64,000 nucleotides of DNA from Hydrolagus colliei (Eukaryota). The stretch lies in the NCBI GenBank assembly GCA_035084275.1, contig CM068755.1, forward strand, positions 13,578,001-13,642,000, read 5' to 3'. The notes under the pieces are model-generated. The model saw only the letters and a program-made list of their open reading frames with translations. It ran no database searches and was not told the origin of the DNA. Shown piece by piece: positions 7,359 through 56,571 of this stretch. Numbering within the stretch: position 1 is the stretch's first letter; the number at the start of each line of letters is the position of its first letter. The translations under genes and the position numbers were made by a program.

Positions 7359-10300
7359 ATGGTTTCTTCTCTTTTGAAAAATCTCCTCGAGTCCTACATC
7401 TTAAAGCTTTACAAAGGAATGTTTGCTCGGAAACAAGCAAACACAACGAGAAAGAAAGAGAGCAACCTAGACAAAAAGGAGCCAAAGCATACACAGCAGG
7501 TCAATCCAGTTCGGAATCAGAAATTTTCATCCAATCTAAAAAGCACAGTTAGGAGAATAGCGAAATGCCAATCTGCCCGCAATCTATCTGTTGAGGAAGA
7601 GGAAGGGAAGACCGAGTATTCGCTTTCTCCCACGTTGAGCTACCGGGTGGCAATAGCTAATGGACTGCAGAAGAGTGTGATTCCACCCAATAATGAGGGC
7701 GTGTGCCCAGAAGTATGGTCTGTTGATAGTGGCACCTCTGAATCATTGAATGAAGTAAGCATTTCGCATAAAGGGAAAGAGCGCCGGTCACGGACAATGC
7801 CGGTGAGGAGGAACAGGAAAAGTGTCAGTAGCCTCGCTCCGTCTGATGGAAGCTCAGATGGAGAACGTACTCTGCTGAGGCTGGGCGCGCTGCGCAAACT
7901 TCGCAAGTGGAAAAAAAGTCAAGAATGCATCTCCTCAGAGACGGAAATGAGCAGTTGGAAAAAAACGCTCGGTTTTAGGAGCAAGTCTTTGGACAGAACG
8001 GGTCGAATGCAACAAAAGAGCGCCATGGAGCCTTCGTTCAGTTCCACTGGCTGCATCAGTCAAACCCACGATGTCATGGAAATGATCTTTAAGGAACTCC
8101 AAGGAATAAGTCAAATAGAAACCGAGCTGTCTGAACTACGGGGGCATGTTAATTCCCTTAAACAGTCGATTGACGAAATCTCCAGCAGCGTGGAGGTGGT
8201 GCAAAGTGAGATTGAGCAACTCCGCTCCGGATTTGTCCAGTCCAGAAGGGAAACCCGAGATATACACGACTACATTAGACAAATTAGCTATCAAGGAAGC
8301 AAAGTGAGCCTGCGATTCATCAATGTTCCCGAGGAGCTCCATGAGAATACAGAAAACGTCATTTACGGAATCGTGGAAGAAAGGTTAGGGCTTACGGATG
8401 CTCGAACAACTGTTAAAATGGAACTTGTTCACAGGCTAGGGCAACGGAGAGACTGCGCTAATGCCAAGCCCCGTCCTATTCTTGTGTATTTTGACAGTCC
8501 ACAAAATAGAGATTTAATTCTCAAAAAGTGTTACAAACTGAAAGGTTCCGGCATCGGAATCTCTACAGAAATCTTTAACGACCTCCACAGCAGAAAAGAA
8601 TATTCGCTTCCCCCCAAATCTCAGACGTACGAAAGCATGAATATGAAATTGACAACGGCTGACGAGGAATTCAGAAGGGATCAGTGGGGATCACCTGATT
8701 CCAGCGATAAGGAGGTAGAGGAAGACTTTAATAGCCACAGCTTTGAAATTAGTTCTGAAACGTTTTTCGAAAAACTGTCCATCTCCACAAAGAAAGGGGC
8801 AGAATCTCACAATCTTGTGAACATTGACCGGACTGTGGTTTGCAGTTCGTACTTGAACTCAACGCAACTGTGCGCGGATGACAGCTTTCACTCTTCAGCT
8901 TTTGAAGACTCTCAGAAACAGAGAGAGCCTTATTACAGCGAAGCGACACCATCTTGGACGCTACAAGGAGATTACTCGACGCCCAAACTCAGCCGTTCAG
9001 AGTCTGATTTTTCCAAACTCTGTCAGTCAATATCGTACTCTGAAGAATTTTCAGATACTCAGTACTTCACCAGGGCTGATGGTACCTCAGTCATGTCAAC
9101 TTCGGAGAAAGATATTTGGTCAAGAGGAAAGGAAGAGGCGGCATCTGGGTGGGTTGGCAACGCCGATAATCAGCAGTACGATTATGAGGACCAACAATAC
9201 GTCGAACAGAACGAGGTAGAGAACACTGAAACTGGCGACAGTGGGGTGAGTAACGGGATACTCTGTGCGTCAGGGGACCAAAGTCACTACAGTGACTCCC
9301 AGTTGTCTTTGCAAGGGGATCTCTCACCGTGGAAAGAATGGCAGCCGTTACAACAAGGTTTGGACTCTGGTTTAGATACTTCGCAACATGCCTTTGTTTC
9401 TGAAGGCAATAGTCCATCCGACCAAAACGTCCTGAATTACACACCCGATTTTGATGAATGTTATCAGGCCGCTGGTCTGGACTATGAAGAGGAAAAGTAC
9501 GAGACGACACTCGACGGTGTCCCTTCAGCGTGCCAGGACTTGGATGGGACATCCCAAGCTCAGTGGGACAGCAACTACGACTCCTACCATGATTCGTATT
9601 CCAATGACCATTATCAAAACCGACCCACGCTGAGATGTCGGAGTCAGAGCGAGCTGCATGGTGAGAGCGAACCAATGGTGACTCCTCCCAAAACCTGGCA
9701 CAGCCGGCTGAGTATTGATCTGTCGGACACCGGTTTCAGCTTCGAGAAGTTCGGCTCGACCCTTCAACGCGCTAAATCCGCCTTGGAGGTTGTCTGGAAC
9801 AAAATGGACTCCAGAAGCACCCAAAGTCTGAGCGGGTACGAAGAAGGAGAATCATCCACCGGTCGCTTCAGGACGTTGTCTCAATCTACAGCGGACGCCT
9901 CCTGCGCCACTCTGGATTCCGATGCGTATTATGAGCCTTACTATTATAGAGCCGAAGACGACGAGAGCAGTGATCAGGCCGCGGAGAACGAAACCGATTA
10001 CGTCGAGGTGATGGAGCAAGTGCTTGCAAAACTGGAAAACAAAACGTTCCTTAAAGAAAGCGAAGAACTGTCACCGTCATATGAGCCCGCAGAAGAACTG
10101 AGTGTTCGAATGTTAGACAAGGGCTGCTACGAGATGCCTTATGATAACAGCATTACTGAAGACTTCGAGCCTGAAGAACTGTCAGAGGACATGTTGGGCT
10201 CAGAAGACACATTGGGGTCGGAAGACATGATAGAAGCCGAAGTTATAATACAGCCTGACTATATGATAGAGTCTGAATATGTGATAGAGTCTGAATATGT

Positions 10301-10521
10301 GATAGAGTCTGAATATGTGATAGAACCTGAAGATATCATTGAGCCTGAAGAAATCCTTGAGCCTGCATCTGAAGTCGTAGGTGAAGAGGAACCACCCGCT
10401 GAAAGTCAAGCTACAGAGGAACCTTCTGAAGCTCCAAAGAAAGTTAAAATGCGGCCTACATTCAAACAAGCTGCGTTCAGGGCATACAAACAACAAGTGG
10501 AAGAGGGGATACTAACTGGAG
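7359..10521 (+). CDS. UNC13C: Munc13-3 coding exon 1 (3163 nt): N-terminal region with coiled-coil/ORF1p-like block and acidic low-complexity tail
   Basis: MVSSLLKNL...SLSPTLSYRVAIANGLQK...LGALRKLRKWKKSQEC...THDVMEMIFKELQGISQIETELSELRGHVN...ETDYVEVMEQVLAKLEN match the UNC13C-specific N-terminus. Donor GAG|GTACTA at 10522, phase 1, fits the next exon. Confidence 0.95.
10183..10368 (+). repeat. Coding 18-bp (6-aa) tandem repeat; three perfect units at 10264-10317 encoding IESEYV
   Basis: TGATAGAGTCTGAATATG x3, flanked by degenerate hexads (LGSEDT, LGSEDM, IEPEDI, IEPEEI). Confidence 0.9.
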
Positions 10522-34401: not shown

Positions 34402-34480
34402 GCCTGGAAGCATACTCTATGGCATTGACAGCATGCCTGATCTCCGGCGACAAAAGACAATGCCAATTGTTCGGGATGTG
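34402..34480 (+). CDS. UNC13C: Munc13-3 coding exon 4 (79 nt; [26 protein letters not shown])
   Basis: Conserved Munc13 motif [11 protein letters not shown]; TTTAG| acceptor, |GTGAGT donor. Confidence 0.95.
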
Positions 34481-35116
34481 GTGAGTTATCTAGTTTGAAT
34501 TGTTTGAAGTCTGCTGTACTAAATTGAAAGAACACCGGGGCCATTAAAAAACAAAGTACTTTTACTTTTAAGGTGTTTGGTGTTATCCCTGAAACACACC
34601 CCATTCCCTTACAATTGATTTACTGTAAGCAACTACTCTGGATGCCAGGGGTAATTGGTTCGTCCCAACCCCCCTCCCTCCCTCTTAACCAACCTGACTG
34701 ATATTGGGAGTTTATCATGAGAAGTAAACTGATACATCACTGATACATACATCAGTGTCAACACATCCAAGTCAATACTCAATGACAGTTATGTGTTCTC
34801 CTTTCGTTCGATGTGTTAAGAGCCTTTATTACTAACTTCAAGTTCAATGCAAACACGCTCTGTGCTCTGAAAGCCAAATGCAATTTCAAAACACTTCAAA
34901 GAAAATTTCTCACTTTCAGTTTAAGGAACTTGGAAAAGTATGAAACAGATACGTACCAACATTGTTTTAAAGCTTAATCAATGCAAAAATGAGTTTCTCA
35001 ACTGTGCAGAGGTAATATTCACCACACTGTGCTTCAGTCATTTCAATTGCTAATGAGACAGCGGATGTAATAACTAACCTTTGTAATTTCTTTCTTATGC
35101 TTCTTGGATTAAACAG

Positions 35117-35122
35117 GCAATG
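35117..35122 (+). CDS. UNC13C: Munc13-3 6-nt microexon (Ala-Met)
   Basis: TAACTAAC branch site, pyrimidine tract, AAACAG|GCAATG|GTAAGT; restores the RDV-AM-TLAARK sequence of UNC13C. Confidence 0.85.
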
Positions 35123-36438
35123 GTAAGTTTGTATGGAGTGCAGTGTGATACATTAAGCTGGAAAATACCAGTCACAGGATTTACTGTACTTTCTGTATCC
35201 CCGCTCATTCAGCAGACTTTTGGTTAAAGTTTCTGTAAAATAATGTCTTTGATTTATATATGTTAGTGAAATAATGATGCTGTAAATTTTAAGTTACTGG
35301 TGAATAGGATTTGTGACATTTATTGGTGACTCGTATTAATTAATAAATCCTCATGATAGTAATTACTTGTGAAAAGTTTTGATATGTTGCAACATAAAAG
35401 GTGCTCTAAAAATCCTAAAACCTGCAAATAAAAAGGAAGCCAGATGTTGACTAAGGGGCAAATTAAACGTTTAAACTAATTTCCTTCAAGCAAAGCACAT
35501 GATAACTTAAATATGCAAGTCCCTAGGTCAGTGGTCTCATCTATAATGAATCATTTATCATCGGGCTGAATTGCCCTATTTGCAAACCCAATCTGTCTGG
35601 TGTTAACATTTATTGCCCTCTGCGCCATTTGTCATCTTCTGTTTGACAAAGTTTGACAAACGCAGCCTGAAAATGATTGCATATTCATTTAGTAGATTCA
35701 ATCACCAATAGCTGACTAATTTTCGACACGCCAATTTAAAATCTAATCTTGTTCATTTGGTCCTTGCTTTTTAAAGAGTTAGAAAGGATGCAGAGTAGAC
35801 ACCCCAGGAAGGGACACTGATGACTTTTTTCAGGAAACAGTGTCAATAACTCTTCATTATCCTTATTATGCAAATCAGAGGTGAGCCTTGTTGCTATCTA
35901 CATCAAACTCCACATACTGTATATGTTTTTAATTTTGTTTCCAACATTTGAAAACATTGCTGGGTGCATTTGAGCAAGACATTCCCACTTATTTGGGGTT
36001 TTTTTCAATGAGACTCTCCAAGCTCAAGCAAATTTCTGATTAAAAACAAAAGAAATCTTAGCAACTGTGTGCGTTCAATGTCCTCAATCTCAATGCGCAA
36101 TGGAAGTACTGAAAAAAAATTGATGATTCTTTTCATTGTTAAAAAAAATCTGAACAGAATACTTCAAGAACAACGGAAGAGAACACAGTGAAAGCAGACA
36201 CCTAAGATTTGATTTTGTTCATTGAGTATTAATTATAAACCACTTTAGCACATGCAACCCTACTCAATAACTCCATTAATTTCTTTTGGAGAGGAGGGGG
36301 ATCCAATTGGAAAAGGGTTAGTTTGCACACCCTTCATCGCATCAGTTTTGAGTGCACAGCTATTATTTACATGGATTCTTTTCCATCTCTCGTTTCATCT
36401 CTTACTAGTTGCACTTTTTTTTTCTCCCGCCTCAACAG

Positions 36439-36510
36439 ACTCTTGCTGCCCGAAAGGCAGGCATATCTTTTGCTATGGCCACCAGAACCTCACTAAACAA
36501 TGAAGAATTG
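36439..36510 (+). CDS. UNC13C: Munc13-3 coding exon 6 (72 nt; TLAARKAGISFAMATRTSLNNEEL)
   Basis: CAG| acceptor, |GTAAGT donor, Munc13 homology. Confidence 0.95.
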
Positions 36511-38398
36511 GTAAGTGGGTTTGTTTATGTGTTTATCAGCACAACTTTTATCAGTCACCCAGTGAATTAGAGGAGAGCTATGGGACATCATGGTCTTCGA
36601 GCTACTAAGAGGGCAGCACCTGTTTGTGCTTACACAGCACAACGCTTAAAATCTCTAAAGAACTGGGGGTGCCGGTAAAACTAGTACATATAAACATATT
36701 CTCAATCATTCTTTTATCCTATGCAAACTTCAACCTCACTACATTACCCATGATCTATGAATCCCGGTAAATCTGCAGTTTTCCTAAGGGTTGATCCTGG
36801 CTGGGAGTAGAGGAAAATGCTCACTATGAAAATGATACAAGCATCGGCGAGGGGAGGCGAGCGGGGTGGAGGGAGGGAGCGAAGCAATTATATTGGTGGT
36901 CAGTTTTGTGCAGTTCACATCAAGGGAAAGCTTTGTGTGAAGTGATGGCAATTACTTGGTGTTTCTCATTCTCTGTGTTTAGTGACACTGCAGCACATTG
37001 CGCACAAATTATGCAGTAAGTCTTTGAGAAAGTTTTCTAGACAGGCAGAGAGAAAGCCACTGTGTTGTTAAGCACTGAGTGAGGTGACAAGCAGGCGAAG
37101 CAAATCAAGTGTAAGTAAGAGTCAGTTGAATTGACTACCAACATATCAGATGGTCATTGAATGAATTTGGTCCATGGTTGAACTAGCAGAGTTCAAAACA
37201 TTCAGAAGGGCAACAAATAACTACAGCCTCCTTTCATACAGATTCCTTATGAATGAGACTTGTGATAAGGCTGTCTGACATTTGTTGAAAGAAAGTGTTT
37301 GGTACATTACTGCAAGCACCTCACCTGCCAAACTACCTATTTCCACATTGGTCACGCATCACTAATTTATTTTCGAAACATTCTTCCCTGAGCTTCTTCA
37401 CTCACGCTTCACATTTGTTGAGGAAAGTGGACCCCATTTTGAAAAATTAAATCAAATGTAAATTTGCTTTTCTATGGTTTTAAATAAGTGCTTTGATTGA
37501 CCAATGACCTGTTCTGAAGCGTAGTTTCAATTAAATGGCTTCATACATTGAAATCCCATAAAATGGAAAGAGAGTTAGAAGCAGTGAGGCATAGCTAATT
37601 ACATCATGCATTGTCCAACGCAACAGTGCATTTACCTGTGGCAACCATGTATTTTAGTGCAGAAGGATTGATATATTAAAATATCACTTGTAAAATAGTT
37701 AACAAGTCAGATTTTATCACTGGTAAAATGATACGATGGATGTAACATTCACTGCCAGATCACTTTGGGTAGAATTACTTAAAGGAATTCTGAAGATAAA
37801 TTGGAAACTGTAGGCGTAAAGATGTGTCATTTGAAATGATCTTCCAAAAGACTCCCTCGTATCTATCATTCCAAACTGTCCAGTCCATTTACAATTTGTA
37901 CAGGTTTCAGTACATAATATATGGATGTATTTCTTTGAAATATAACCATTGTGTACATGCACTGACTGTATCCAAGCTAATGTTTGGGAATAAAAAAATC
38001 TGATTTTTTTTCTAATGTTCGTTAATCTCAAATTATATTCTTTACTGCCTTAGTCATTTAAACCCGAATGCTGAGGAATTTGGATAGAAAAAAATTACCC
38101 AAATTCTGTTTGATATATTTACTTTATAAAGTATATTAAATTGCCTGCAAATTCAATCTGTTTAAGAATGGCATGTACAGTTATGATCCCAAATATATAA
38201 ACTTTTGGTGATACTATTGCTAAAAGTGCTTTGCTGAAGTTACCTATAACCAGAATCAAGCGAGATTTTTGAGTTTGGGTGATGTCACTTGGATTGTATC
38301 TCTGATTCTATTAATCTTATTATAGGACATGATATATTGTAAAGCGCCTCAAACCAATTTCATATGCTATATCTTGTTGTATCATCGAGAATCCAAAA

Positions 38399-38489
38399 CC
38401 ATCAGATTTAAAATTTCACATGTAAATATGCAAATAGCAGTCAAGTATTCTTAGCCTTCAATGATGTGAGACAAAGCGGTGCGATTTAA
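38399..38489 (+). repeat. 91-bp direct repeat, copy 1
   Basis: Ungapped match to 40292-40382 with 10 mismatches by manual alignment. Confidence 0.9.
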
Positions 38490-38522
38490 TTGAAATGAAC
38501 AGATTCCAGTTCTTCATTTTAA

Positions 38523-38765
<243 letters not shown>

Positions 38766-39467
38766 TGATTGACTTTCACTGAGAGAAGGAGAGATGGCCA
38801 GAATCCTGCTCACAATCACAGTACAGAGCAGTTGCGGTGTAAGGCCCTGAATGCAGAACTTTAGAAAACAACCTACAAAGCAGTCTATATTTGGAAATTT
38901 TTGCTGCTGCTGCCCTGTTTGATTTTGTGCCAAAATTGGAGCCTCTACCTGCAAGCCATTTAATGTCCATTGGAAATCAGCGCTGATCGCTGCTACCTGG
39001 AATTGCCGGATGGGGCCTTCAAATGGTTTTCAATTCTGTTTTCTTACGGTTTTGTCAATTTAGCTGTATTTCCGTTTAATTTTAACAAAAATAACTCCAG
39101 CAATGGCAATCTTCGACCCTCAAATGATTTTTAATTACTGTAAATATGGAATATATACTTTGTAGCAGGCAAAGGCCTTTTGCACTGGAGGAATTACTGG
39201 AGCCAAGATACATTAGTGATCACCAGCAGCAAGACATTTCACTGACTTTTATGAGTCAGAACTTCTAAATAATAATATAGATTACTACAACATTACATAG
39301 ATAACATTCAAGATCTTGAAATTAAATTGATCTGCTCCATTAAGTTCTGGTAAACTAAAAAATGATTTAATAGGGAGTATTTGTTCCATCATCAAGATAG
39401 AGAATTGTTCAAAGTTTCTAGTTTGGAAACTCTTTCAATGTTTCCCTACCCCCACTCCCAACTCCAG

Positions 39468-39695
39468 GTGCAGCTGAGAAAAGTTCCAAACACGGAGCAG
39501 AGGACAAGACGCAAAATATCATCACAGCCATGAAAGAGAGAATGAAGATCCGGGAGCAAAACAACCCGGAGATTTTTGAGCTGATTCAAGAGCAATTCCA
39601 AGTGTCAAAAGAAAACTATGCACAAAATTTAAAAGCAGCGAAGCAGAACGTCCTGGATGGGACTTCCAAGTGGTCAGCAAAGTTAACCATAACAG
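39468..39695 (+). CDS. UNC13C: Munc13-3 coding exon 8 (228 nt; C1-C2B linker)
   Basis: [29 protein letters not shown]...[15 protein letters not shown]; AG/GT boundaries. Confidence 0.97.
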
Positions 39696-39772
39696 GTTAG
39701 ATTCTCTTATGATTAATTAGTTGTTTCAACCTGTTGATGTGTCCAAAATGAGGGGGTGTAAATATAATCTCA

Positions 39773-39860
39773 ACACAGAAGTCATTGGGAACATGCAGTA
39801 GGCCGGGCAGCATCTACGGAGAGAGGAAAATTAGTTACTATTTTAGGTCAATGGCCATTG
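39773..39860 (-). mobile_element. Decayed copy of the Penelope-type element
   Basis: GGGAACA...GGCAGCATCTACGGAGAGAGGAAAA arm followed by a degenerate minus-strand hammerhead ending in GTCAGAACT. Confidence 0.6.
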
Positions 39861-40291
39861 GTCAGAACTCGCCGAAACACAGCGGTGAAAATGCGGAAGC
39901 CACTGCTTGAAACTGGTGGTTGAAGCAAAAAATGACGGTGGATTTTAGAGGAAACTTGATCTGTACATGAAAGAGATGGAATAGAGTGTAGGAGTTTAAG
40001 ATGGATGGAGGCTGGTGTAATAGCAGCAAAATCCCATGTGAAGGGCACTGTATAAATACAAGTTGTTGTTCTATTAAATGATTATGCTCAGTGTCCCATG
40101 ATTTCCCTACAATTGAGCAATAGGTGACTTCACTCCTAGCAGTATAAATACTGGATTAAAAGCAAATAATGTATGTATTATAAATCAGACTGCTTAAAAC
40201 TGTAGATTTGATTAATCACCAAAGGATCAAGTTTAAATGCCTTTCCAGGAAAAATAAGAAAGCAATTTGGCTTTAACTAAACACCGCAGAG

Positions 40292-40382
40292 CCATCAGAT
40301 TTTAAATTTCATGTGTAAATATGCAAATAGCAGTCGAGTATTCTTAGCCTCCAATGAGGTGAGACGAAGCAGTAGGATTTAA
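40292..40382 (+). repeat. 91-bp direct repeat, copy 2
   Basis: Ungapped match to 38399-38489. Confidence 0.9.
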
Positions 40383-40753
40383 GATGTCACAATAACGCAA
40401 ACACTAACCGATCTGAATTACCATGCAAAATATTCCTATTCCTGCTTCAAATTCAAAACTTTAGTTTGTGATTTAGTTAGTATTTGCTGTGAATATTAAA
40501 ACTGGCCAGACAAACGTTTAGCTGTTTCCTGAAAATAACAGTTAAAAACCCACAAAACTTCATAGCAAACTGTTTGAAATTAGTACCGCTGATGACTTTT
40601 GTACTACGCCCCCTCCACCTACAAGCTGCTAATTGCGAGTAGGTTTGTGTGTCCAGTGATTTTCCACGTATGTTTTGCTGCAGATTATCTTTGAAAGTTT
40701 GAGAGTTTTGAAGTACTTTGTTAAATATTCGAGGCTTTCCTTTGTGCTTACAG

Positions 40754-40895
40754 TGCTTTGTGCTCAGGGTTTACAAGCCAAAGACAAGACAGGCTCAAGT
40801 GACCCATATGTCACAGTTCAAGTGGGTAAAACCAAAAGGAGAACCAAAACCATTTTCGGAAATCTCAACCCCAACTGGGATGAAAAATTTCATTT
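40754..40895 (+). CDS. UNC13C: Munc13-3 coding exon 9 (142 nt; C2B part 1)
   Basis: [46 protein letters not shown]; |GTAAGT donor. Confidence 0.98.
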
Positions 40896-42744
40896 GTAAG
40901 TATTGGTTTCTAAACGTAATGGTAATCACCACGTGAACAGACACTGACGTTGGGCATGTCTGAATTCCATAGGTTGCACGTATTGCACATATTGTCTTAC
41001 TTCCTGGTGGTCAAATCACAAAGAGTTGTAGTTTTTAATTTAAGGCTTTTTACAGCTCAAGCATTGTGTGCAGGCCAAAGAAGGAAAGGTTAGCACGGGC
41101 GATGGGGAGACTGGTAACTGGGCTCAAAGCCTTTGAATCCTTTTAACACTTGAGACATCAATGCAGATTAAAATATGTCACTTTCATTTCTACGCCTCAA
41201 CTCTGGACTGGTGTTTTTTTTTAATCTCCAAACTATTGAATCTCTGCTTGCCAGCTGCTCTAGCTGTAATCAAAAAGCAGTTTAAGATGGCCAGAAGCCA
41301 GTTTGTATCCGTACATGCAGAGGGCAGAAAGCCGAATCTTGTTCTATGTCATTAAGTTGGGCTTTCTGCAAGGATCCCTTTCTGGTTGGAACTAAGGCAG
41401 ATTCGATCACATCACCTCTGAAGTGGTTACTCTGGTTTCCTGGTGGTTCAGTATTTTGAACCTTTAAAGCCCAGATTTAGCGAAGCTGTGATATCTGCTT
41501 GCTCTCTGCAGAAGAGCACCACAACACAACCGGTAGAGGAATAGAAGATGAGGGGAGACTTTTATAGGGCAAAATCACTGGCTAAAAGGCTTCTTTCTTT
41601 ATGTGTCTCTATGTAGCTGATAGGGGTTTGACCAAAAATAAGAGATCATCGCTTGCGCAGCAGAAAATTGTTTGTTTGCTTTGGATATCTGATTACATTA
41701 ATTAACAATGTTTTATGTTACTGTCCATGTAAAACCTGTATGGAAGCACTGATATCTATCCAAGTGTAATCTTGATGTTGATATCATTGTTGCACGTAAT
41801 AAGTAACTTCTGAAACCCTCTGAGCTGTTCACTGGAGGGATGGAATCTTTCCCAGTCCATTATTACTTTGCTAATAATGAAGAGCACAATAGCATGAGTT
41901 TCTGATTTGCAGAAACGTTGGGACATTGTGTGTGCTTTTTTAAATGCTTCAAGAGTGCAGAGTATCTTGCAGTAAAGCTTTTTATTCCAGCATTATCGAT
42001 GATAATAATAATAATAATTTGATTGCAATTGATTGCGTCTGAAACACTTGCACTTGGGGGCATTCTCCGAATGTGAAAGGCGCTTCTTTGCAAATGTAAT
42101 TTTGTATTGTATTCTTGCTTGGAATTCTTGCCATTCTTCCTTAAAAACATTAATGTTCGAAATAATGTATTCTCACCACACTGGATGGAACGCAAACCCC
42201 AAATAAACACCATCACTTATCCTGAGTACAGTGCCTGTAATTCTATTTGGGTTTAATGATTTCAATCATGTGTCTGCAATGTATTCCATTCTGTGCAGAA
42301 TTACAGAGTATAACTAATTCTGAAGCTGCAGCCATATTCCCAGCAACAATTTATTTGACATCCCATTTGTCTTGCTGCAGGATAATTGTTGTAGGAAAAT
42401 GACAACGAAACAAGAAAATGTTTTTCAGGTTGCAATGCACGGCTAAACGTTATGTGCAACCATCCCGCAGTGGATGGATAACTAACCACGACCTTGCTTT
42501 TAATTAATCGTGCAATTCATCATTTGCTTGATTAATGCGTAGAATGAAAATTATGTTCCGGCGTAAAATTGTTTACGACTATATTCTGTAATATTGAAGT
42601 GCTCCAAGACGCTAACCCTCATGAAAGGCACTGCATAATTGCAAGTTGTTGTTGTAATGGCAGTTACTTTTGCCTACACAACCTACCTGTGAAGCCCTTC
42701 GAGATAATTCAACATGAGGTTACCAAAGAGCAAGTTATTTCTGA

Positions 42745-43232
<488 letters not shown>

Positions 43233-44329
43233 CCTTTCCCACTATCGCTTGGTTGAAAGTTAAGACTCTTGTCTATAATTTTTTCACCTGGTCATCGTTT
43301 CACTGTTCTTCAACACAAAGAGAAACAACTGATGTGTAAAATACTGCCTGATAACATCAACAACAAAATTGCACTTGTCTTTCACGTCAGGAGGACGTCC
43401 CAAGAGGCTGGACAATCAATGATTGTTTGATTATGCAGAAAGTTGCAATTCAGCAAACCTACAGTAAAATATTATGAAGCTAAATGAAAGACAAGATGAA
43501 CGAACAATCGCTATGCAGCAAATTATGTCCAACAGTTCTCAAACAATTAGCTCTCTAAAAACATCCCAAATTGCTGTCTGCAAAGAGCTTTATAGCAGCT
43601 TTGTGACCTATAGATTCAAGATTCAAACATTCTTCGGGGTATAAGATCTATATAACGGATTTTCATGTCCCCGGTTTATACTGCTAGGAGAAGAGATTTA
43701 TTGTCGCCTTAAACTGTGAAGTGATTAGGAGTGGAAAGCCAGAGGCTGTGGAGAGGTTGCTTATAGACATACTAGCAGGAGAGCTAATGCTAAATTGTGT
43801 CAAGCCCACTGATTCTTTTTTTATGATTGTATTTTTTTTAAATCGCTGGTCACTTGAGTGGTTCGTTAATGTTAAAGGTCTCGTGACAGTTCTTGGACAG
43901 TGGAACTTTTAAGGCACCAATTTTTTGGGAGGCTAAATTTATTTGCACTGCAATAATTAAGCTAGAGGGCTGGATCGATATTTATTTATATTTGCATCAA
44001 TGCACGTCAGTTTGCGGCACGCCAAAATAATCTCCTCAAAATGGTCTGGCTGTGTTGCTCTTGAGAGCAAATTATCGTGGCTAAAATCAGAAATTACCCT
44101 GATTACCCTGAAATTACCCTTGCGGTGATTCACCGTGAAAAGCACAGTTTCATCTCGGTATCATTTTCCGTCTTTGCTTAAACCATTCTCTTTAACAATG
44201 GTTAGGTAGCTATATACTCTACTGTTGTTTTAACACAAAGTTTGTACCACACATCAAGGCTTTCGAGTCCAGAGCAAATTTGTGACTGTTGTAAATAAAA
44301 GGCGTTCTTTCCTATTATATTTTGGAGCT

Positions 44330-44535
44330 TAATAATAATCCTTGCATTTGATATAGCACTTTTCACATATTCTAGACGTCTCAAAGCGCTCCACAGAATA
44401 TATTGTAAAGTGAATAAACTCCATATTTGTGGGCGAAATGTAACAGCAAGTTGCGCACAGCAGTGTCCCCAAACAGTCATGGAAACTTGCCTAAGGTTTC
44501 ACCCTGCTGGAAATAATACTCAGGTCTCTCGCTTA
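44330..44535 (-). mobile_element. Same SINE family, internally deleted
   Basis: Tail and core joined directly to a partial head. Confidence 0.85.
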
Positions 44536-44777
44536 CCATCACAGGACACCTAATAAACCAAGTGTTAGCCTAGCAGAGAAATGCAATCAAACATTAACTT
44601 TTAAAAGTTGTAATCCTGCCTAACTTTGCCTCCACAGAGTTATGATGTAAGATATTCATCTCTTTTACTTTTATATTTTGACCAAATCAATATTTTTCTT
44701 TTAATTAGCCAGGACCTCGGTGACCTCAGTTGATCTTCTAGACAGTAATTTGGGAATGAAAATCCAGTCATAAAAAG

Positions 44778-45305
44778 TTAGTCTGCAGGTACAGCAAGCA
44801 ATTAGGAAGGCTAACAGTATGTTGGCATTCATTATAAAAGGGTTAGAATATATGAGTAGGGAAGTCTTGCTGCAGCTGTATAGGGCCCTGGTGAGACCGA
44901 ACCTGGAATATTGTGTGCAGTTTTGGTCTCCTTATTTAAGAAAGGATGTACTCGCCTTGGAGGGGAACACTAGGTTGGTACCTGGGATGAGGGGAATGAA
45001 TTATGAGGATGGGTTGAGCAATCTAGGCCTATATTCTCTAGAATACAGTATAGAAGAATTAGAGGTGATCTTATAGGATCTATAAGATTATTAAGGGGCA
45101 AGACAGAGTAGATAGTGGGAACTATTTCCCCTGGTTGGAGAAACTATAACCAGGGGTCACATTCTTATAATTAGGGGTCAGCCCTTTCGCACTGAGTTGA
45201 GAAAAAACTTCTTCACTAGTGAATTTATGGAATTCTGTATCCCAAAGGGCTGTAGATGCTAAGTCGTTGAACATATTCAAGACTGAGATTGATAGATTGC
45301 TGTAG
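44778..45305 (+). mobile_element. CR1-type LINE ORF2 C-terminal fragment
   Basis: MLAFIIKGLEYMSREVLLQLYRALVRPNLEYCVQFWSPYLRKD is the typical CR1 post-RT motif; frameshifted afterwards. Confidence 0.9.
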
Positions 45306-45543
45306 TATCATCCCGGATTAAAGGAATAACAAAATTGTGTGAATTAAAGTGAATTAATGTGCAGGCTGAATTCATTATAACCTGGTAATCAGCTAGGGCT
45401 GTTTTTGATTCATGTTCAATTTCAAGTATTACCAGATATGCAAAATGTGGGTGATTTTCCCCTCCATGTCAGCAAAGTGTTTACTGGTTTTGTTGTAATC
45501 AAGAGACCCAGCAATTTTAGTTGACAAGCAGCTTCTCTGTTAG

Positions 45544-45807
45544 AATAATAATAATAATAACTCTTGCATTCGATTTAGCACTTTTCATGTCTTCTAGACA
45601 TCTCAAAGCGCTTCACAGAATATACTGTAAAGTAAATTGACAAACAGTCATGGATTGAAGTGACCAATTTATTATTTTCTTTTCTTGAGGGATTATTATC
45701 AGGCGTGTAGAGTAAGGAAACTTGCACAAGGTTTCACCCTGCCAGGAATTGTACCCAGGTCTCTCGCTTGCGAGGCGAGTGCTCTAACCACTGAGCTACA
45801 GGACTCC
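45544..45807 (-). mobile_element. Same SINE family, near-intact tRNA-Ala(CGC)-like head
   Basis: Head 45736-45807 folds as a cloverleaf; core partly deleted. Confidence 0.88.
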
Positions 45808-46294
45808 ATTGTTTTGCAATAATAGATTGACTAATTGAACCATCAGCCCAAGAGAAACTGAAATATGATGGTCAGGCAGACTGTGTAATGTTTTCAGTAA
45901 GGCGGTGGGTGGGCGAGATAAGCACAAGCACACAGCCTGTAGTATTGGCTGGAAGGCAACAACTCAATCCCAGATTCAGAACAAAGAAAGGAAACTTCCC
46001 AATGGGAGTCTTGGGGCTCGTTAAGATGGCACTTGTCAAACTTTGGCAGTGTTACAAATCACTTGCCCAGAGGAGAGAGGTCCCGGGATCAAGGCGAAGG
46101 CTTATCATGGCACATTGATAACTGAGGATGTGGTGCAAAACCATCAAGATCTCAGACATATATTGAACTTACTGAAGAGGAACACAGAAGAACACAATCA
46201 GAGCCTAGCCTAGTGTGCATTTGAGTAAACAAACAAGACCTTGTAAAGCTACTTAAGAATTCTAAGACACCAGTGAGCACAAAGTTGTGCTATA

Positions 46295-46600
46295 TAATAA
46301 TCCTTGCATTTGATATAGTGCTTTTCACGTCTTCTAGACATCTCAAAGCGCTTCACAGAATATACTGTAAATTAAATTGACTGTATATTTGTGGGTGAAA
46401 CGCGGCAGCCGATTATGCACAGCAGTGTCCCACAGACAGTCGTGGATTGAAACGACCAATTTATTGCATTTTTTTAGAGGGATTATTATTATTAGGCGTG
46501 TGGAGTAAGGAAACTTCCCCAAGGTTTTACCCTGACGTGCCTGGATTCGAACAAGGTCTCATACCTGTAAGGCGAATGCTCCAACCACTCCACGTCCTGT
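46295..46600 (-). mobile_element. Same SINE family, full length
   Basis: Tail, core and head; upstream of exon 46760. Confidence 0.88.
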
Positions 46601-46731
46601 ACTTATATGAATGCAAGTTGTCGGAGAATATGTTGAAGGCTAGAAATTATCGACGAGTAGTCAATTATAAATCATTATCATTCAAATTAGTAGCAAACTC
46701 TGAAGCACGCACTGCAAAACACGTCAAATAA

Positions 46732-46881
<150 letters not shown>

Positions 46882-46887
46882 TAACAA

Positions 46888-47213
46888 CAAATAATAATAA
46901 TAATAATCCTTGAATTTGATATAGCGCTTTTCACATCTTCTAAGCGTCACAAAGCACTTCACAGAATATACTGTAAAGTGAATTGACTGTACATTTGTGG
47001 GTGAAACGCAGCAGCAAATTGTGTACAGCAGCGTCCCTCAAACAGTCGTGGATTGGAATGACCAATTTTATTATTCAGGTTTTTTTGGAGGGATTACTAT
47101 TAGGCATGTGGCGTAAGGAAACTTGCGCAAGTTTTCGCACTGACCAGCCTGGATTCGAACACAGGTCTCACTCTTGTAAGGCGAGTGTTCTAACTACTGA
47201 GCTACAGGACTCC
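46888..47213 (-). mobile_element. Same SINE family, full length, 12 nt after an exon donor
   Basis: Tail, core and head ending GCTACAGGACTCC. Confidence 0.9.
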
Positions 47214-47889
47214 AAAAATCGAACAGAGATTCATGCACCTCAATTGACGGTTTCAAATGTACATCAATGACGTTTTCATGAGTAGTAACATAATCCATCA
47301 ATAACTTTAGATACGCCAAGCCTTGTCCAAACTAATTACAAAAAACAGGATTCATCTACGTATTTGGCTAAAGCTCTGAATGGAGATTCTCTTCTTTCGT
47401 TCCCACAAGTTGACTGTTCGAACGAACCTTCTTTCCTGCAAATATAGGCATTCCCTGTTCCGTGCCCCAGCAGTTTACAAATCGTTGTGCCTCTCGGGAA
47501 ATTTGTTTGTCTATGCCTCCTCCTGTTTCACAATTCTCCTGAACTCTACTCAAGTGCATACTGTGCCAGAGGAACTCATTGATGCAGCACCAGTTATTTT
47601 TATTGCTGGTCTTTTCCACATACGCTGAGAGGAAATAAATATTTTAATTTATTTAGAATTCAGATTTTGAATTGAACTTTTGAATTTTAAACCTGCACCT
47701 GTTGTGTGTGTATACATCATTTCTCCTAAAATTCATTGAATTTTCTGAATTTTTTTTTTACAATTTTTTTAGCGATCGAAATATAGCAGTAAACATTAAA
47801 GTGAAAAGGGGGAATATCTCTCAATATTTAGACACGGCGAAATTATTTTCAAAAGCTTAATTCAAAGATTTTCATCCCCTTCACTCCAG

Positions 47890-48053
47890 AACCTGTTCAA
47901 TTATTTGACTGAGGTCAAGTATAACGGTGAGGTGAAAATCCCGGAATTGAAAGGAGATGAGGCATGGAAAGTATACTTTGGAGATTCCCCTCAAGAAATT
48001 GTGGATGAATTTGCGATACGCTATGGAATTGAATCAATTTACCAAGCGATGAC
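47890..48053 (+). CDS. UNC13C: Munc13-3 coding exon 12 (164 nt; MUN region start)
   Basis: [54 protein letters not shown]; |GTAAGT donor. Confidence 0.97.
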
Positions 48054-48129
48054 GTAAGTGTCTTATTTTGTGTACTTTCGGCACAGCAAATCCCCACAAA
48101 CCAGCTTAAAAACCTCTCCCTCCAAACAA

Positions 48130-48272
48130 GCCCCAGTTCTGATGAAGGGTTGTAGACCCGAAATGTTGACTCCTTTTCCTTTCTCCATGGATGCTGCTTG
48201 ACCTGCTGAGTTTCCCCAGCCACTTTTGTTTTTGATTCAGATTCCCAGCATCTGTGGCGTTTTGTGTTTTGT
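48130..48272 (+). mobile_element. Penelope-type element, single arm preceded by hammerhead
   Basis: Arm TTTTCCTTTCTCCATGGATGCTGC...CAGATTCCCAGCATCTG is homologous to the 18-kb and 43-kb copies. Confidence 0.8.
48135..48171 (+). ncRNA. Minimal type-I hammerhead ribozyme motif (Penelope-like element type)
   Basis: AGTT-CTGATGA-A-GGGT(TGTAG)ACCC-GAAA-TGTT-GACT: both core strands, stem II and a 4-bp stem I are present. Confidence 0.65.
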
Positions 48273-50390
48273 TTATCAAACTGAAGGCTGCTTTGGTTTA
48301 ATTTCCACCGACACATAAACGTTTTGTAACATACTATTCGATCTATTTTTGTTCCAGGCAAATTAAGTGCTTTTACTGAAACTGTGTCTTTACCAGTCAG
48401 TCACTCCAGACTATTTGTGTTTTTTTGTTGATGTCCGGCCACTCTGCTCAGAGGCATTTTAACACAGACATGCACTGCGATCTCACCATGGGTATTTGAA
48501 CACACAGGAAAACACTGGTTTATTGTTGTTTCGTTCATATAAACCAGCTGAGAGATCACAGTGTTTCATCTCTTAGTACTGTAGCAAGAACCATCCAATT
48601 TATTTCTGTGCAAATATGGGAACTAGTGATGTGAAGTCAGATTCCGCCACAGTTAAGCATTCTTATCCTGCATGGAGGGCGCTATATAAGTGCAAGTTGT
48701 TGTTGTCATTGCATTGATGATAGATATCCCTTAAAATATAAGCATCGTGTTCATACCACAACCACAACATACCACCATAATACCACACTGCAGTATTTTG
48801 TTTTAAATAAAAATAATCTTATTTTTAATCATGTGTTACAGTTGTTCACAAGTTAGTGGTTCTGTCCAACCCATTCCACCAAACATAATGTACTCTAGCC
48901 TGGGGAAGGATGTAAAAATAGCCATCCCCACCAGAATAAACAGATTGATTAAAACAGGTTGATTTGTAACACACAAGATAATTAGAAATGGATGTGGGGA
49001 CTGATTTTCTCACTATATCATCAGCACACTGGAGGTGAAAAAATAAACCTTCTACTCAGTCAATAATATGCAGTCTGAGGTGAACTTTCTGAATAATGCC
49101 TGGCAATAACTATCAGGCATTTTTTCCATACAGACTTCCACTCCTCTCACAAGGAATATCATTTTCTCCCAGTAGTGAATATTTTACTGTAACATGGCAA
49201 CAATCTTGAAATGAAAATAGCTTATCAATGAATATGGTTAAAGTCACGGGAGGGGGATGCAATCTTTGCTAAGGGATTGATTGATTTTACTGCAGTAATT
49301 AAACATATCCAGAATTTGAGTCTTATCTATCTTCTCAAAACTGGGAATGCCTTCGGTCATTAGTGATTGCCACATGAATTGAAGATTGCAGTACATTTTG
49401 TTCTAGTTACGTTGGTTGGCTTTAACATCTTCTGGTGTTATAACTTAGTTAGGTCAGAAATAACCAAAACCTATTTTATTTGGCCAGTCGGGTATCTGGC
49501 ACATGTTTAGGAGTGTCCGAACCAAGAGAGTTCCATGCGTCTTGCCCACACGTGGCAATTCCTATGTATTCTATGCTACTCCCTCATTGTAACTCTGGGA
49601 GTAATGATAAATCATTTGCTGGGACCACGTTTAATGTTTAAAATCTGCTTCCAACGCCTTGGGACGTCCTCCTGACGTGAAAGGCGCCTACACAAGTGTA
49701 ATTTTGTTGTTGTTGTTGGCTACCAATCCGGTTGTATTCACTCATTTTAAACATTGACCATGTTTCAACTGCAGTCAGCATAGCAATGTGGCGAAGTCAG
49801 AGCACGCTGTATAAATTGGACTTTGTACAACCCCCTCACTTTAATGCTGGAAGTCATGATGAATCATCTCCTGCAGTATAATCTGAGTGGTAATGCACAA
49901 GACTTCGAATTGGTTACCAGCCTATAGTTGAACAACTTTCCGAAATGCAATAGCTTACCAGCGACTGGCGATGAGGTCAGGTTATGGGTTATGATTTATT
50001 ATTTTGTGTTACTGCAGTGAAGTAAATAGATCGCCATTTTGCGAAGATTGGTATCCTCCCCCCACACATCACCCAACTTCACCGACCCCCACCACATGAT
50101 TAAAAATGTATTCATCAAACAGCAATTTTCATTTAAGCATCACTCCGAAACTTTACCTAAGAGTGCACCTTGTTGCTTTATTATGATGCGACAGATATTG
50201 ATGGACATTGATGTTGCATCTGTTCCATCAATCTTAGCAATATAAATGTGTATTTTATAACTGCGTTATCACCGTAGAATATCCAAGTAGCTGTGGCAGT
50301 TATAATGCTCATTAGCATCTGCATAACTTCACATTGGCAGGCAAATTTAAATAGTTCTGTGAAATGCATAATCTATAACAAATGATCTAG

Positions 50391-50588
<198 letters not shown>

Positions 50589-52219
50589 TAATGCGCACTT
50601 TCTCTTCAAGTATAACCTAGATTTTAAATCATTTTGATTTAATCACTGCACTGTGGGAGATTATTATTTTGCTTCTCTGTGTTCTGAAAGGCAGAGTAGT
50701 TTTGTTTTGCGTTTCTTGTGTGTGATAACAAGGCTTTATTCTTCAACCATTTTGGATAAGTTTCATGACGGTGCTACTGTTTGTTAAGAGAATGTTGATC
50801 ACTTACGTAGTTCAGGTACCGTTCCCTTCTGTTTAGTTTGGCTTTTTCCACCATGTTTTCAAGAGAAGCTTATTATATTACCAAAAATATTCTCTACCAA
50901 TGATTTTCTGAGCTGAAAACACACATTTTGAGATGTCAAATACATTTTTCGAATAGTCTTATAACGAACCACATCATGGCACTTTTAAACCAGAATTTTG
51001 AATCAGCGTTCATTAATTTGAAAGTAAGATGTGCTTTCAGAAATATTTAAAGTGAGACTTTGACTATATAATCAATGCATAATCAGAACAGCCAAAGAAA
51101 CGTATTCAGTGAGTCACTGCGAAATGTTTTTCTGTGGATAATATGCTATAGTTGCCAGTGTTGCAGTGATAGGTCATGAGCAAGAAAACACAACTAGTCT
51201 GTGCCGTTTACACCCCAAAAAGCAATGAGATTAATGCCCCACACCAAGGAGATGACTGGTCAATTAATACTACCTATTAATGGCCAGGTTGCCAGAGGAA
51301 TTCTTTGGTTTTCTAAATTCCTTGTCTTTGACATCTTCGACAAAAGCCAAGCTATGATTTATTTTATTACAGATATTTGCTGCAAAATAAAATGAAGATA
51401 ATGCTTGAACTGGTTTTGCCCAGTAAAGCATTTTTATGAAGTTGGATGTACCAGCAAGTATAATGGTAATCATATCCCCCTAGACATAAAATCTATCTCT
51501 TGAGGCAATTTCATGAAATCAACGCCTATCTATTTAGAAAAAAGGTATGTGCTATTGGAGAAACTAGGACAGGCCTGTGTTTTTTTTATATATAATATAT
51601 ATTTACCACTTTTCTCCTGGCGAAAAACATTTGGATTTCTTCAATGTGTTGCTTTTCTGCATTTTAAAATGGAACTGAATTGTGAAAGCTTTAAACAAAT
51701 GTGTGTGTTCAAAAGATGTAATTGGGTCTAAAAAAAAACCCCCTAGATTATTTTGTTGGAATTGCCTGAAACATTGCACAGAGAGTTCTGGAGGTGTGAC
51801 ATTGTCATCCCTATTCTTCTTGCAACAACACAATTGTCTTTCTCAACAAAACAAGGCAAAATAAACAGCCTGGTAATCCTTTCAGTATATATCCATTTAC
51901 GTTAATATTTCCAAAATGCAATTTATTGCTTTGGGATTATAGAATGGAATACATATCAGTGAATCAAATTATTTCTGCTGCTGATATAATAATAAAAACT
52001 GCAGCAGTTGCGATGGAATTTGAAGAAAAAGCACTTTGCAAATTTCAAATAGAAATGTAATTACTTGCTAACATTTTTACAAGTATGTAAAGAACAAGGA
52101 TGGCACAGTTGCAGTTATTGAACCACATGTCACTGTTATTTACCGAATTATTTGTGTTCAGACCATTAATACCTTTTTAGAGTCATTATAATTTGTTTCT
52201 ATAAGACACATATGTTTGA

Positions 52220-52369
<150 letters not shown>

Positions 52370-53298
52370 TAAAAAAATTGTCACAACATACTGTGGCAAG
52401 GTTACCATTTTAGTTTTGTTTTCTAAGGTCATATATATTAAAATTAATGTGGGGAGAAATTGCATCGATGGAACGGTTGCGTCAGTCGAATTATTGAGTG
52501 GCATTTTAATATCTAGTCGTGCACTACAGCATCATGTCCCTGCAGAAATGGTTTTGATCCTGTTCCCAAATGCCTTGTCGCCGAATAGTATAATACAGAT
52601 TAAATTATTAGGCATATATTTTGAGAAATGACACGGAAATAACAATAATAATAATAATCTGACCAAATATTTTGAATGCGCGCACAGTACAAATATTCAA
52701 ACATTTAGTTTGGTGCAATGATTATTCTTATTATTTCTGGTGTCGATGGCGCACTAAATGAGCTGGTAACTGTTCAGGGATCTCTCAGCTGAGTTGCAAG
52801 ACGCTACGTCACGTGGATCTACTGTGCAGCATCAAGGCACCAGTTTTCCCGCACTGTGAAATCCTGGTGCACCAAATGAGGAGAATCGACAATAATTGTT
52901 GATTGATATTCTGAACATTCTACTGTTTTCTCAGTCTGTGGGACTCTGCCAGAAAGCTTTGCCATTTGATGTGCACTTGAGGAGGGAATGCAAATCCTAA
53001 CAGTCATAAGATGATCCTGGCTTTATTCGAACTTAAATTGGGTCAGAGTCCCTCAGAGCCCCAGCACTCTTTCTCAGGCAACATCAATTTAATCAGATAT
53101 CCATCTTCATTATGACTGCTTTCAACTGCGCCTGCTTATAGAATATCCTCTCTTGTTCCTAAAATGGCAGAAGTCATTTTGAACAATTTGATATTGCAGA
53201 CAAACGTAACTCGGAAAACAAAGTACGTAGCTAAAGAAGACGGGTAAATAAATAATTCACCCTAATAAAAAAAAGTCCCAAACCACCTTTCCACACAT

Positions 53299-53334
<36 letters not shown>

Positions 53335-53869
53335 GATATGATTGACAGATCAAGAGTGGAAAAACCAAAGAACGCTTAATTTCAAGATGTTATGAAATGT
53401 AGCTGATGATTTATGTTTTATTGTTGTAAGTTACACAAAGTGCAAAAAACCCCAGTGAAATCCTCCTGCCATCCGTTCTACCATCTTGCTGTAAGAAATT
53501 GCATAGATTTGGGGTGACTTGTTTTACAATCTTACCCATGGAACATCTGTTGGTTAATCTCATCTATTTTAGATTTTGGGTGGGTGGCATGTTGGTTTTC
53601 ATTAGTGGTGTGTCGGTTGTCAAATTTTCTAAAGATCTGAATTATTTTTTAATAAACGGTATCAGTGATATTGTATCATATGGGCTGCGGAGAGATGATA
53701 CCTTGTTCATCTTATCATTTCCTATTGCATGATGAAAGATCCTGAAACTCTCGGTATCTTTCTTGTTCATGATATCCTTATTGTGCCTATTATTCAAGAC
53801 AGTGTGTTGACAGGTAACCTTTGCAACCAAACTGGGCCTTGTATTCATATCATGTCAAGTGGCTGTTGA

Positions 53870-54268
<399 letters not shown>

Positions 54269-54291
54269 TGACTGAGCCTTGTCCATTTCAG

Positions 54292-54420
54292 GTTCAGGAG
54301 CTGCAAAGTCCTCCACGGGCAAGTTCGGTAGTGAAAGACTGTGTAAAAGCTTGCTTGGACTCAACTTACAAGTATATTTTTGACAACTGTCATGACCTGT
54401 ATAACCAGATGCTAGATCAG
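54292..54420 (+). CDS. UNC13C: Munc13-3 coding exon 16 (129 nt)
   Basis: [43 protein letters not shown]. Confidence 0.96.
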
Positions 54421-55889: not shown

Positions 55890-56125
55890 AGAGCGAAACC
55901 TTGGCCAAGTTTCCTTACTCCACATGCCTGATAATAATCCATCCAAAAACAATTGGCCATTTCAATCCACAACTGTTTGTGGGTCACTGCCGTGCGCAAT
56001 CGGCTACCACGTTTCACCCACAAATATCCACTCAATTCATTTTACAGCACATTCTGTGCAACGTTTTAAGATGTCTAGAAGATGTGAAAAGAGCTATATC
56101 AAATCAAAAGATTATTATTATTATT
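55890..56125 (+). mobile_element. Same SINE family, head decayed
   Basis: GCGAAACCTTGGCCAAGTTTCCTTACTCCAC...core...(ATT)n. Confidence 0.85.
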
Positions 56126-56437
56126 TAATTATCACAATGTTTATTAATTACCTTGGCATTGTAGGCATTGTAGGTGAAACATTGTTTTGTTTCTTGAGGA
56201 AAGGGCTAAAGACTTCTATAACTCTTAACAACTGGTGATTATGAATGGAAAATATATAACACTACTACAAAAAGGAAGGTTGTTAAAACTCCTTGAATAC
56301 TTGAATCACTTGAATCACGATTGAACATTCAGACACTTGTACAGGAACGCAGCTGCTGGCTGTCAGTTTCTTGGGTATTTCAGTTTGCTTGAAAGTATTT
56401 TAAACTAACGATGGGATTTATTTTTCTGCACTGACAG

Positions 56438-56571
56438 AGTAAAAAACAGGAGGTTCCTCGGGAGGAGCAAGGCCCAAACATCAAAAATCTGGACTTCTGG
56501 CCTAAGATCATTACTCTGATGGTCTCCTGTGTCGACGAAGATAAAACAGCATATACACCCGTTCTGAATCA
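56438..56571 (+). CDS. UNC13C: Munc13-3 coding exon 17 (134 nt)
   Basis: [44 protein letters not shown]. Confidence 0.96.

Follow-up and report, generated by a model that had tools for sequence, protein, structure and literature searches.

We analyzed a window of 64,000 nucleotides from the chimaera Hydrolagus colliei (assembly GCA_035084275.1, CM068755.1:13,578,001-13,642,000, forward strand), which carries the large N-terminal exon and downstream core exons of UNC13C, the gene encoding Munc13-3. Within the large exon, a module composed of a coiled coil and an RNA recognition motif (RRM) spans window positions 8073-8570. This module derives from a type II ORF1p, the protein of the first open reading frame (ORF) of a long interspersed nuclear element (LINE), but it is not a full member of that family, having neither the C-terminal domain (CTD) nor an accompanying ORF2. 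Positions refer to the whole window, and amino acid (aa) numbers to the window UNC13C protein, counted from the ATG at 7359. The features of the locus are as follows.

7359..10521, forward strand: large N-terminal exon of UNC13C (Munc13-3), coding sequence from the ATG to a phase-1 donor; acceptor predicted near 7073 from sequence only.
7776..8033, forward strand: basic segment on the N-terminal side of the coil (aa 140-225; net charge +14), with conservation of about 80% across aa 151-250.
8073..8288, forward strand: coiled coil of ORF1p origin (aa 239-310), predicted to form a parallel trimer (sequence, AlphaFold2 and complex model).
8082..8210, forward strand: segment aligned to horse UNC13B aa 145-187 (21/43 identical), window aa 242-284, first part of the ORF1p-like coil.
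8301..8570, forward strand: ORF1p-type RRM, aa 315-404, beta-alpha-beta-beta-alpha-beta, 62.5% conserved (Pfam, PDB search, Foldseek).
8571..8612, forward strand: weak match to where the ORF1p CTD begins, with the remaining CTD absent (ORF1 hidden Markov model, HMM).
34402..61238, forward strand: core exons of UNC13C (IDSMPDL exon 34402-34492, C1 38532-38753, then C2B/MUN); the gene extends past the window.

The large exon lies in a long uninterrupted open frame (7341-10565), in which the ATG at 7359 opens an N-terminus of the Munc13-3 type, with an in-frame stop just 5' of it (7338-7340). The coding frame runs from 7359 to 10521 without a break and closes at a phase-1 GT donor, which agrees with an earlier sequence-only reading of this DNA that had placed the block within a single intron-free exon; the motif positions given in that reading are also exact (SLRFINVPE with S317 at 8307, HRLG with H358 at 8430, PRP with P371 at 8469). 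The gene is UNC13C, because all five C-labelled proteins compared are 82-85% identical to the window core exons as against 72-78% to the paralogous locus on contig C1, while three of three B-type proteins show the reverse pattern and are nearer to the paralogous locus. Thirteen downstream tblastn matches (34406-61238) are collinear with UNC13C of sloth and tinamou, and orthologs in the database fuse the domain to C1, C2 and MUN domains in one protein. We looked for one or more small exons linking the phase-1 donor at 10521 to the phase-2 acceptor at 34402 and found none between them. Public contigs of sequencing run X1 span the entire exon with five single-base differences, of which the three within the domain are silent; X1 is a possible source of the assembly and its agreement is not independent support. 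An assembly artifact was nevertheless rejected, because orthologs are found across jawed vertebrates. We also observed a short tandem repeat of EYVIES-like units in the coding exon (10256-10360), where the X1 contigs break.

To trace its origin, the module was compared with profiles and structures of known proteins. The only Pfam match of the RRM taken alone is Transposase_22 (PF02994; E 3.4e-4, 21.3 bits), and a chance match of the coiled coil was rejected for this reason. A phmmer search of the domain against the PDB found human L1 ORF1p (2ykp, E 2.7e-6), with an alignment that crosses both coil and RRM. A profile built from ten UNC13C and two UNC13B sequences (A1) recovered human L1 ORF1p at E 4.4e-7 as the sole molecule below E 0.001 among 177,635 sequences. 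The AlphaFold2 model consists of a 78-residue helix (residues 2-79) followed by an RRM (predicted local distance difference test score, pLDDT, 78.9). Foldseek gave ten matches at E<=0.001, every one of them L1 ORF1p (best E 8.5e-6; the next family follows at 8.3e-3), and L1 ORF1p also takes the top rank in VIA (Z 9.0, root-mean-square deviation 3.6, 90 aligned, 28% identity). When A1 was aligned by hhalign with A2, an alignment of ten ORF1-like coil-RRM-CTD proteins, the probability was 99.7, and the A2 HMM (294 positions) scored the window protein at 116 bits, compared with 10.8 when the domain was reversed and no more than 5.8 in 200 shuffles. The LINE ORF1p origin proposed from the sequence is thus borne out by PDB, profile, hhalign, HMM, Foldseek and VIA comparisons, and the profile and structural checks that the same reading had called for gave a significant sequence and fold match to L1 ORF1p, with a predicted RRM fold.

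The A2 HMM match ends at position 246-262 of 294 in six of six UNC13C proteins and at 244-246 in all seven RRM-bearing UNC13B proteins; judged from these alignments, the CTD is mostly lost from the module. A search with A1 returned 1,623 representatives at E<=0.001, in which ten UNC13 rows are followed, from E 1.5e-17, by unnamed coil-RRM-CTD proteins. With A2 we retrieved 42 metagenome loci, 20 of which have at least 800 nucleotides downstream; a same-strand ORF2-like match (to an ORF2 from another locus) was present in 15 of these 20, and locus L051, outside the 15, has an ORF2 of its own. Five ORF2s located beside relatives of the module carry endonuclease and reverse transcriptase (RT) domains by Pfam. 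At least two types of ORF2 adjoin the ORF1-like relatives, and the donor LINE clade is thus not singled out. By sequence comparison, the nearest relatives found outside UNC13 are LINE ORF1-like. Four of the ORF1-like coil-RRM proteins (P0147, P0173, P0175 and P0185) were observed to have a C-terminal NADAR domain (Pfam E of about 1e-35 to 1e-42).

An intact LINE at the locus was rejected, as five ORF2 queries gave no match within the window. The genome contains at least two loci with copies of the module, both inside UNC13 genes. An ORF1-like query used to look for a living donor family matched nothing in the genome except the UNC13C exon, which is a lower bound given that five candidates were scored. 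A scan of the genome with PF02994 gave no match anywhere, the controls included, and is hence uninformative.

The second locus in the genome was found by a match at G000:C1:142542100-142542627 (E 6e-25), which belongs to the following feature.

G000:C1:142540620-142543140: bMunc13-2-type exon of UNC13B, with an 839-residue frame that includes the coil and a drifted acidic RRM.

This paralogous locus has C2A exons upstream and Munc13 core exons downstream, and its domain is 85% identical to that of Callorhinchus UNC13B. Within this genome the UNC13B and UNC13C domains are 34% identical over 197 residues (E 4e-29), with an alignment that extends through the RRM, and the remainder of the two large exons gave no significant alignment; in both genes the large exon is closed by a phase-1 GT. 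Coil and RRM are also found together in basking shark, emu, an anole 'UNC13B', horse 'UNC13B X18' (aa 141-302) and two unnamed proteins. The sequence-only reading had regarded the block as absent from UNC13B, which is incorrect: the module is present in the bMunc13-2 exon of this genome and of shark, emu, anole and horse. A further 28 B-type rows contain only the coil, and 27 of them lack both RRM motifs; eight were looked up and seven could be named, all seven being ray-finned fishes. The RRM of chimaera UNC13B has a net charge of -8. Taken by itself, the chimaera UNC13B domain gives no ORF1 match in Pfam, and its search retrieved one relative among 463 candidates, itself a UNC13B. Its profile score to UNC13C is far above that to any ORF1. 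The UNC13A locus was not found in the assembly with C1 or C2A queries, being either lost or missing from the assembly. In two further proteins, UNC13B-like P0142 (Sphaerodactylus) and UNC13C-like P0127 (Arctogadus), the RRM stops after its first part, which represents lineage-specific loss or an annotation artifact. Intronic LINE RT fragments were observed in both UNC13 loci (L003:8252-9262, corresponding to G000:C1:142544252-142545262, and L039:2161-3594); they lie upstream of the ORF1p exons and are positionally unrelated.

A search with the window domain gave 166 matches among 952 candidates. The 120 matches listed are 70-89% identical, and those with names are UNC13C or unc-13-like; among them the best is Chiloscyllium (89%), bony vertebrates reach 70-79% and mammalian orthologs 70-74%. 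A quick, unrooted IQ-TREE tree was built from 115 of 164 rows, with 49 dropped for partial coverage and human L1 ORF1p not included. In this tree 11 UNC13C and 8 UNC13B rows stand together on one side of a branch that separates them from 96 ORF1-like rows (Shimodaira-Hasegawa-like approximate likelihood ratio test, SH-aLRT, 99.9), and the B half and the C half each track the vertebrate species order. Since the B and C copies fall in one clade, one capture would predate their duplication, and the simplest reading of the sequences is a single capture before the UNC13B/UNC13C duplication and before the split of cartilaginous and bony fishes. The sequence-only reading had dated the event before the latter split, and this date stands, with orthologs in both groups and an agreeing tree. 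No named cyclostome or invertebrate Unc13 is present among the 120 of 166 domain matches listed or the 30 of 150 A1 rows that were looked up; clustering at 50% can conceal such proteins, so this is not evidence of absence. A literature search on the timing of the duplication, which did not cover subscription journals, found nothing relevant.

Across 119 ortholog clusters the coil (aa 231-310) is 93.7% identical over aligned positions, compared with 62.5% for the RRM, 61.6% for the part before the coil and 44.4% for the exon downstream. The coil therefore exceeds even the core exons (82-85%), and with both coil and RRM above the downstream exon, purifying selection acts on the module at the protein level. 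A domesticated exon is recognized by a reading frame of ORF1p origin that has become fixed at one host locus across orthologs, and such a frame was found here. The basic segment at 7776-8033 resembles the basic N-terminus of L1 ORF1p in charge, with homology not demonstrated.

Upstream of the window, a C2A query matched the UNC13B locus and also G000:C22:13537556-13539509, on the same strand and about 46 kb before the ORF1p exon, where we identified the following feature.

G000:C22:13530769-13540087 (L037, L038), same strand, 45-55 kb upstream: five in-frame C2A-side exons, with starts at 13530769, 13535203, ~13537556, ~13539392 and ~13539965.

All five exons have GT donors and the four internal ones AG acceptors, their frames are open and their phases match (1, 1, 2, 0, 1); the three that could be aligned are 52-65% identical to teleost UNC13B C2A. 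A weak candidate for a sixth exon was observed at L038:5841-5894 (E 0.44). As judged by eye, ORFs of at least 150 residues between the C2A exons and the window resemble repeats or noise, and one pair a LINE RT fragment. Given that intact C2A exons are located farther 5' and that a stop codon interrupts the frame ahead of the ORF1p ATG, the ORF1p exon is read as an alternative N-terminus and not as a replacement. By its predicted exons, the UNC13C locus follows the arrangement with two N-termini already known from UNC13B, the ORF1p exon being the alternative to C2A, and this suggests a predicted C2A-bearing isoform of Munc13-3 in this fish. Mammalian Munc13-3 is described as having no C2A domain. 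That trait does not hold for UNC13C at this locus, and the proposal of the sequence-only reading that the module stands in place of C2A is not borne out in this genome. Literature on C2A at unc13c in zebrafish was also sought, and only a review turned up.

The oligomeric state of the coil was assessed from its heptads and from a complex model. Heptad positions taken from the interface of the trimer model read I L V I V I F T I at a and I L L I V L S I I at d, in agreement with the frequent Ile and Val that had been noted from the sequence at both positions. Ile and Val at a and d favor trimers, as known from GCN4 variants. The complex model is a three-stranded parallel coil over ten heptads, with a score of 0.70 compared with 0.14 for the best control; the mark used for this model was attained in 21 of 30 solved pairs and in 0 of 23 single chains. 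The runs share at least 75% of their contacts and have pLDDT of at least 74. On the strength of the model, the coil probably homotrimerizes. The sequence-only reading had proposed a module for trimerization and possibly RNA binding; its first half is thus probable, while its second is weak, the CTD being mostly missing.

A link to a known synaptic function comes from rodent bMunc13-2, where residues 145-187 form an ELKS1-binding coil that is 52% identical to the Munc13-3 coil (Kawabe et al. 2017, PMC5379939). According to the same study, bMunc13-2 binds the C-terminal coiled coil of ELKS1 stoichiometrically and needs its own binding coil for active-zone recruitment and full priming, and deletion of that coil lowers excitatory postsynaptic currents from 0.83 to 0.37 nA and shrinks the releasable pool, which falls from 0.23 to 0.10 nC (PMC5379939). 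From the alignment with horse UNC13B, the ELKS1-binding anchor coil of bMunc13-2 is likely to be the ORF1p-derived coil. Liu et al. (2021, PMC8066380) state that the N-termini of these Munc13s are not homologous to any known protein. In L1 ORF1p the coil trimerizes and the RRM and CTD bind RNA together, with a positively charged N-terminus also needed (PMC5940361). As for the Munc13 family, Munc13-1 cores are reported to form trimers that capture vesicles (PMC12912961), and Munc13-3 to superprime and to tighten channel coupling (PMC6650762).

Our reading of these results, to which we give a probability of roughly 0.7, is that the module goes back to a single pre-duplication capture and serves to anchor the protein at the active zone by a predicted three-stranded coiled coil, instead of acting as an RNA chaperone. 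Since the CTD has been lost and UNC13B of ray-finned fishes can do without the RRM, the coil would be the part under selection, and therefore the module an oligomerizing anchor. A number of observations weigh against it. With regard to homology, the Pfam score falls just below the curated cut-off of 22.4 bits, ordinary RRMs reach Z 7.4 in VIA (1.6 below ORF1p), metagenome loci L051-L054 are near-copies of one another, and the tree is quick and unrooted, lacks human L1 ORF1p and omits 49 of 164 rows. With regard to the trimer, the score may be a memory of the solved ORF1p trimer, as the number of copies was set to three beforehand with no dimer or tetramer for comparison; eukaryotic proteins with no older solved relative pass the complex model in only one of seven cases, and the RhxxhE trimerization motif is absent from the coil. 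With regard to the anchor, Munc13-3(1-304) is reported not to bind ELKS1 in two-hybrid or biochemical tests (PMC5379939), and the horse numbering has been equated with rodent bMunc13-2 145-187 by inference. Finally, the RRM of UNC13C is still 62.5% conserved, with a net charge of +3, which a pure anchor leaves unexplained.

That conservation of the RRM motifs across jawed vertebrates is also what speaks for an ORF1p-derived module that still binds RNA or drives condensates, in which RRM and basic segment would connect Munc13-3 to local RNA or phase-separated material of the active zone. The +14 charge of the basic segment fits as well, given the positively charged N-terminus needed by L1 ORF1p (PMC5940361). 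However, we regard RNA binding as quite unlikely, because the CTD with which the RRM cooperates in RNA binding (PMC5940361) is mostly absent, the CTD-less Lyosin has been argued to have probably lost RNA binding (Kitao et al. 2025, PMC12129022), the RRM of chimaera UNC13B is strongly acidic, and nearly all coil-only B-type rows have neither RRM motif. Another explanation keeps the coil and gives up the homotrimer: the ORF1p-derived helix would serve in vivo solely for hetero-oligomeric docking to an ELKS-like coiled-coil partner. The stoichiometric binding of ELKS1 by bMunc13-2 (PMC5379939), the near-invariant surface positions, which suggest a partner, and the missing RhxxhE motif are in its favor, but beta-branched residues at a and d and the continuous trimer interface of ten heptads in the model argue against it, and we consider it unlikely.

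The remaining explanations concern the origin of the module. A separate LINE insertion in each of UNC13B and UNC13C, or gene conversion between them at a later time, might be suspected from the mere 34% identity of the two domains and from the lack of significant alignment elsewhere in their exons. Yet both genes share the position and the donor phase, their copies form a single clade with vertebrate species order in each half, and the B domain matched only a UNC13B in its own search and scores far higher with UNC13C than with any ORF1 by profile, so this is very improbable. It is harder still to credit a cellular origin, with LINEs and Unc13 acquiring a coil-RRM module from a host gene, or convergence. 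None of the ten top ORF1-like matches carries an informative name, the four among them that bear a NADAR domain are more than plain ORF1s, and an Atlas feature match to baculovirus FP proteins (PF25298, 64% of members), although the Atlas matches are mostly unnamed clusters, places such a module outside LINEs. Against this, relatives of the module lie directly upstream of endonuclease-RT ORF2s, ordinary RRMs rank far lower in Foldseek, the module sits within one intron-free exon, and no invertebrate Unc13 is found among the matches listed.

The following course of events would account for an active-zone anchor of this origin. A LINE would have inserted into the intron of an ancestral Unc13 gene between the C2A exons and the C1-C2B-MUN exons, and its ORF1 would have been exonized as an alternative N-terminus, with loss of the CTD and ORF2. 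Duplication of the gene afterwards would have given rise to UNC13B and UNC13C. UNC13C appears to have retained coil and RRM in a nearly frozen state, while the RRM of UNC13B seems to have drifted in sharks, chimaeras and amniotes and to have vanished in the sampled ray-finned fishes, the first part of the coil apparently being kept always. The Munc13-3 coil probably self-assembles and binds a partner other than ELKS1; more speculatively, a trimer would gather three priming cores, each tethered by an acidic linker some 650 residues long, which could account for the 'superpriming' of Munc13-3. More broadly, and only tentatively, a single ORF1p captured before the duplication could have founded the whole C2A-independent class of vertebrate Munc13s, with the coil as ELKS1 anchor in bMunc13-2 and as constitutive trimerizer in Munc13-3, where pre-assembly of three priming cores would explain superpriming; early jawed vertebrates would then have made both C2A and ORF1p forms from each gene.

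The homology between UNC13C and ORF1p, with which the sequence-only reading was not acquainted, is not new. Kitao, Ichiyanagi and Nakagawa (2025, PMC12129022; Methods, Fig. S8, Table S4) reported that a canonical exon of human and mouse UNC13C is homologous to L1 ORF1, with mouse residues 223-404 covering coil and RRM and with crow, cuckoo and Xenopus proteins matching the ORF1s of L1-11_DR and HAL1ME (PMC12129022). The feature is the same, but no further analysis accompanies it there, UNC13B is named in neither the main text nor Table S4, and cartilaginous fishes, dating, the ELKS link and the C2A exons, all part of the present analysis, were not found there (PMC12129022). A search that did not cover subscription journals found no publication linking UNC13B to ORF1p or bMunc13-2 to a retrotransposon. 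Four elements of the present analysis were not found in print: an RRM-bearing copy in UNC13B, capture of the module once before the duplication, correspondence of its coil to the ELKS1-binding coil, and intact C2A exons at the UNC13C locus of a cartilaginous fish. Kawabe et al. (2017, PMC5379939) describe a short coil as the only similarity between otherwise 'unrelated' N-termini, whereas here the homology continues through the RRM (197 aa), and bMunc13-2 differs from Munc13-3 in that the latter does not bind ELKS1 (PMC5379939).

Type II ORF1p occurs in L1, CR1, L2 and R1. The UNC13 module resembles such proteins (human L1 ORF1p, PDB 2ykp/2yko/2w7a/2ldy; PF02994) in having the coil directly before the RRM, in 22-28% identity, in fold and in the predicted trimer. 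It departs from them in the near loss of the CTD, in the absence of RhxxhE and ORF2, in its one copy per paralog, and in the near-frozen UNC13C coil fused to C1-C2B-MUN; the closest relatives that the searches recovered are unnamed ORF1s from metagenome loci, not human L1. As an ORF1p exonized into a host gene it is comparable to Lyosin (the MYL4-ORF1p isoform), to the ORF1 exons of RFX5, NUP42 and USP4, and to L1TD1, and it shares with Lyosin a missing CTD and a retained RRM (PMC12129022). Unlike these cases, the UNC13 module is older, canonical in mammals, present in two paralogs and tied to a tested function of bMunc13-2.

The analysis ties an ORF1p domestication, dated before the split of cartilaginous and bony fishes, to an existing deletion phenotype. 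If the broader reading, in which one capture founded the C2A-independent Munc13s, is correct, it would be the oldest vertebrate domestication of an ORF1p and the first with a tested synaptic role. The ORF1p identity supplies domain boundaries, a structural template and a testable prediction of a trimer, and it bears on how Munc13s that lack C2A are anchored and why Munc13-3 superprimes.

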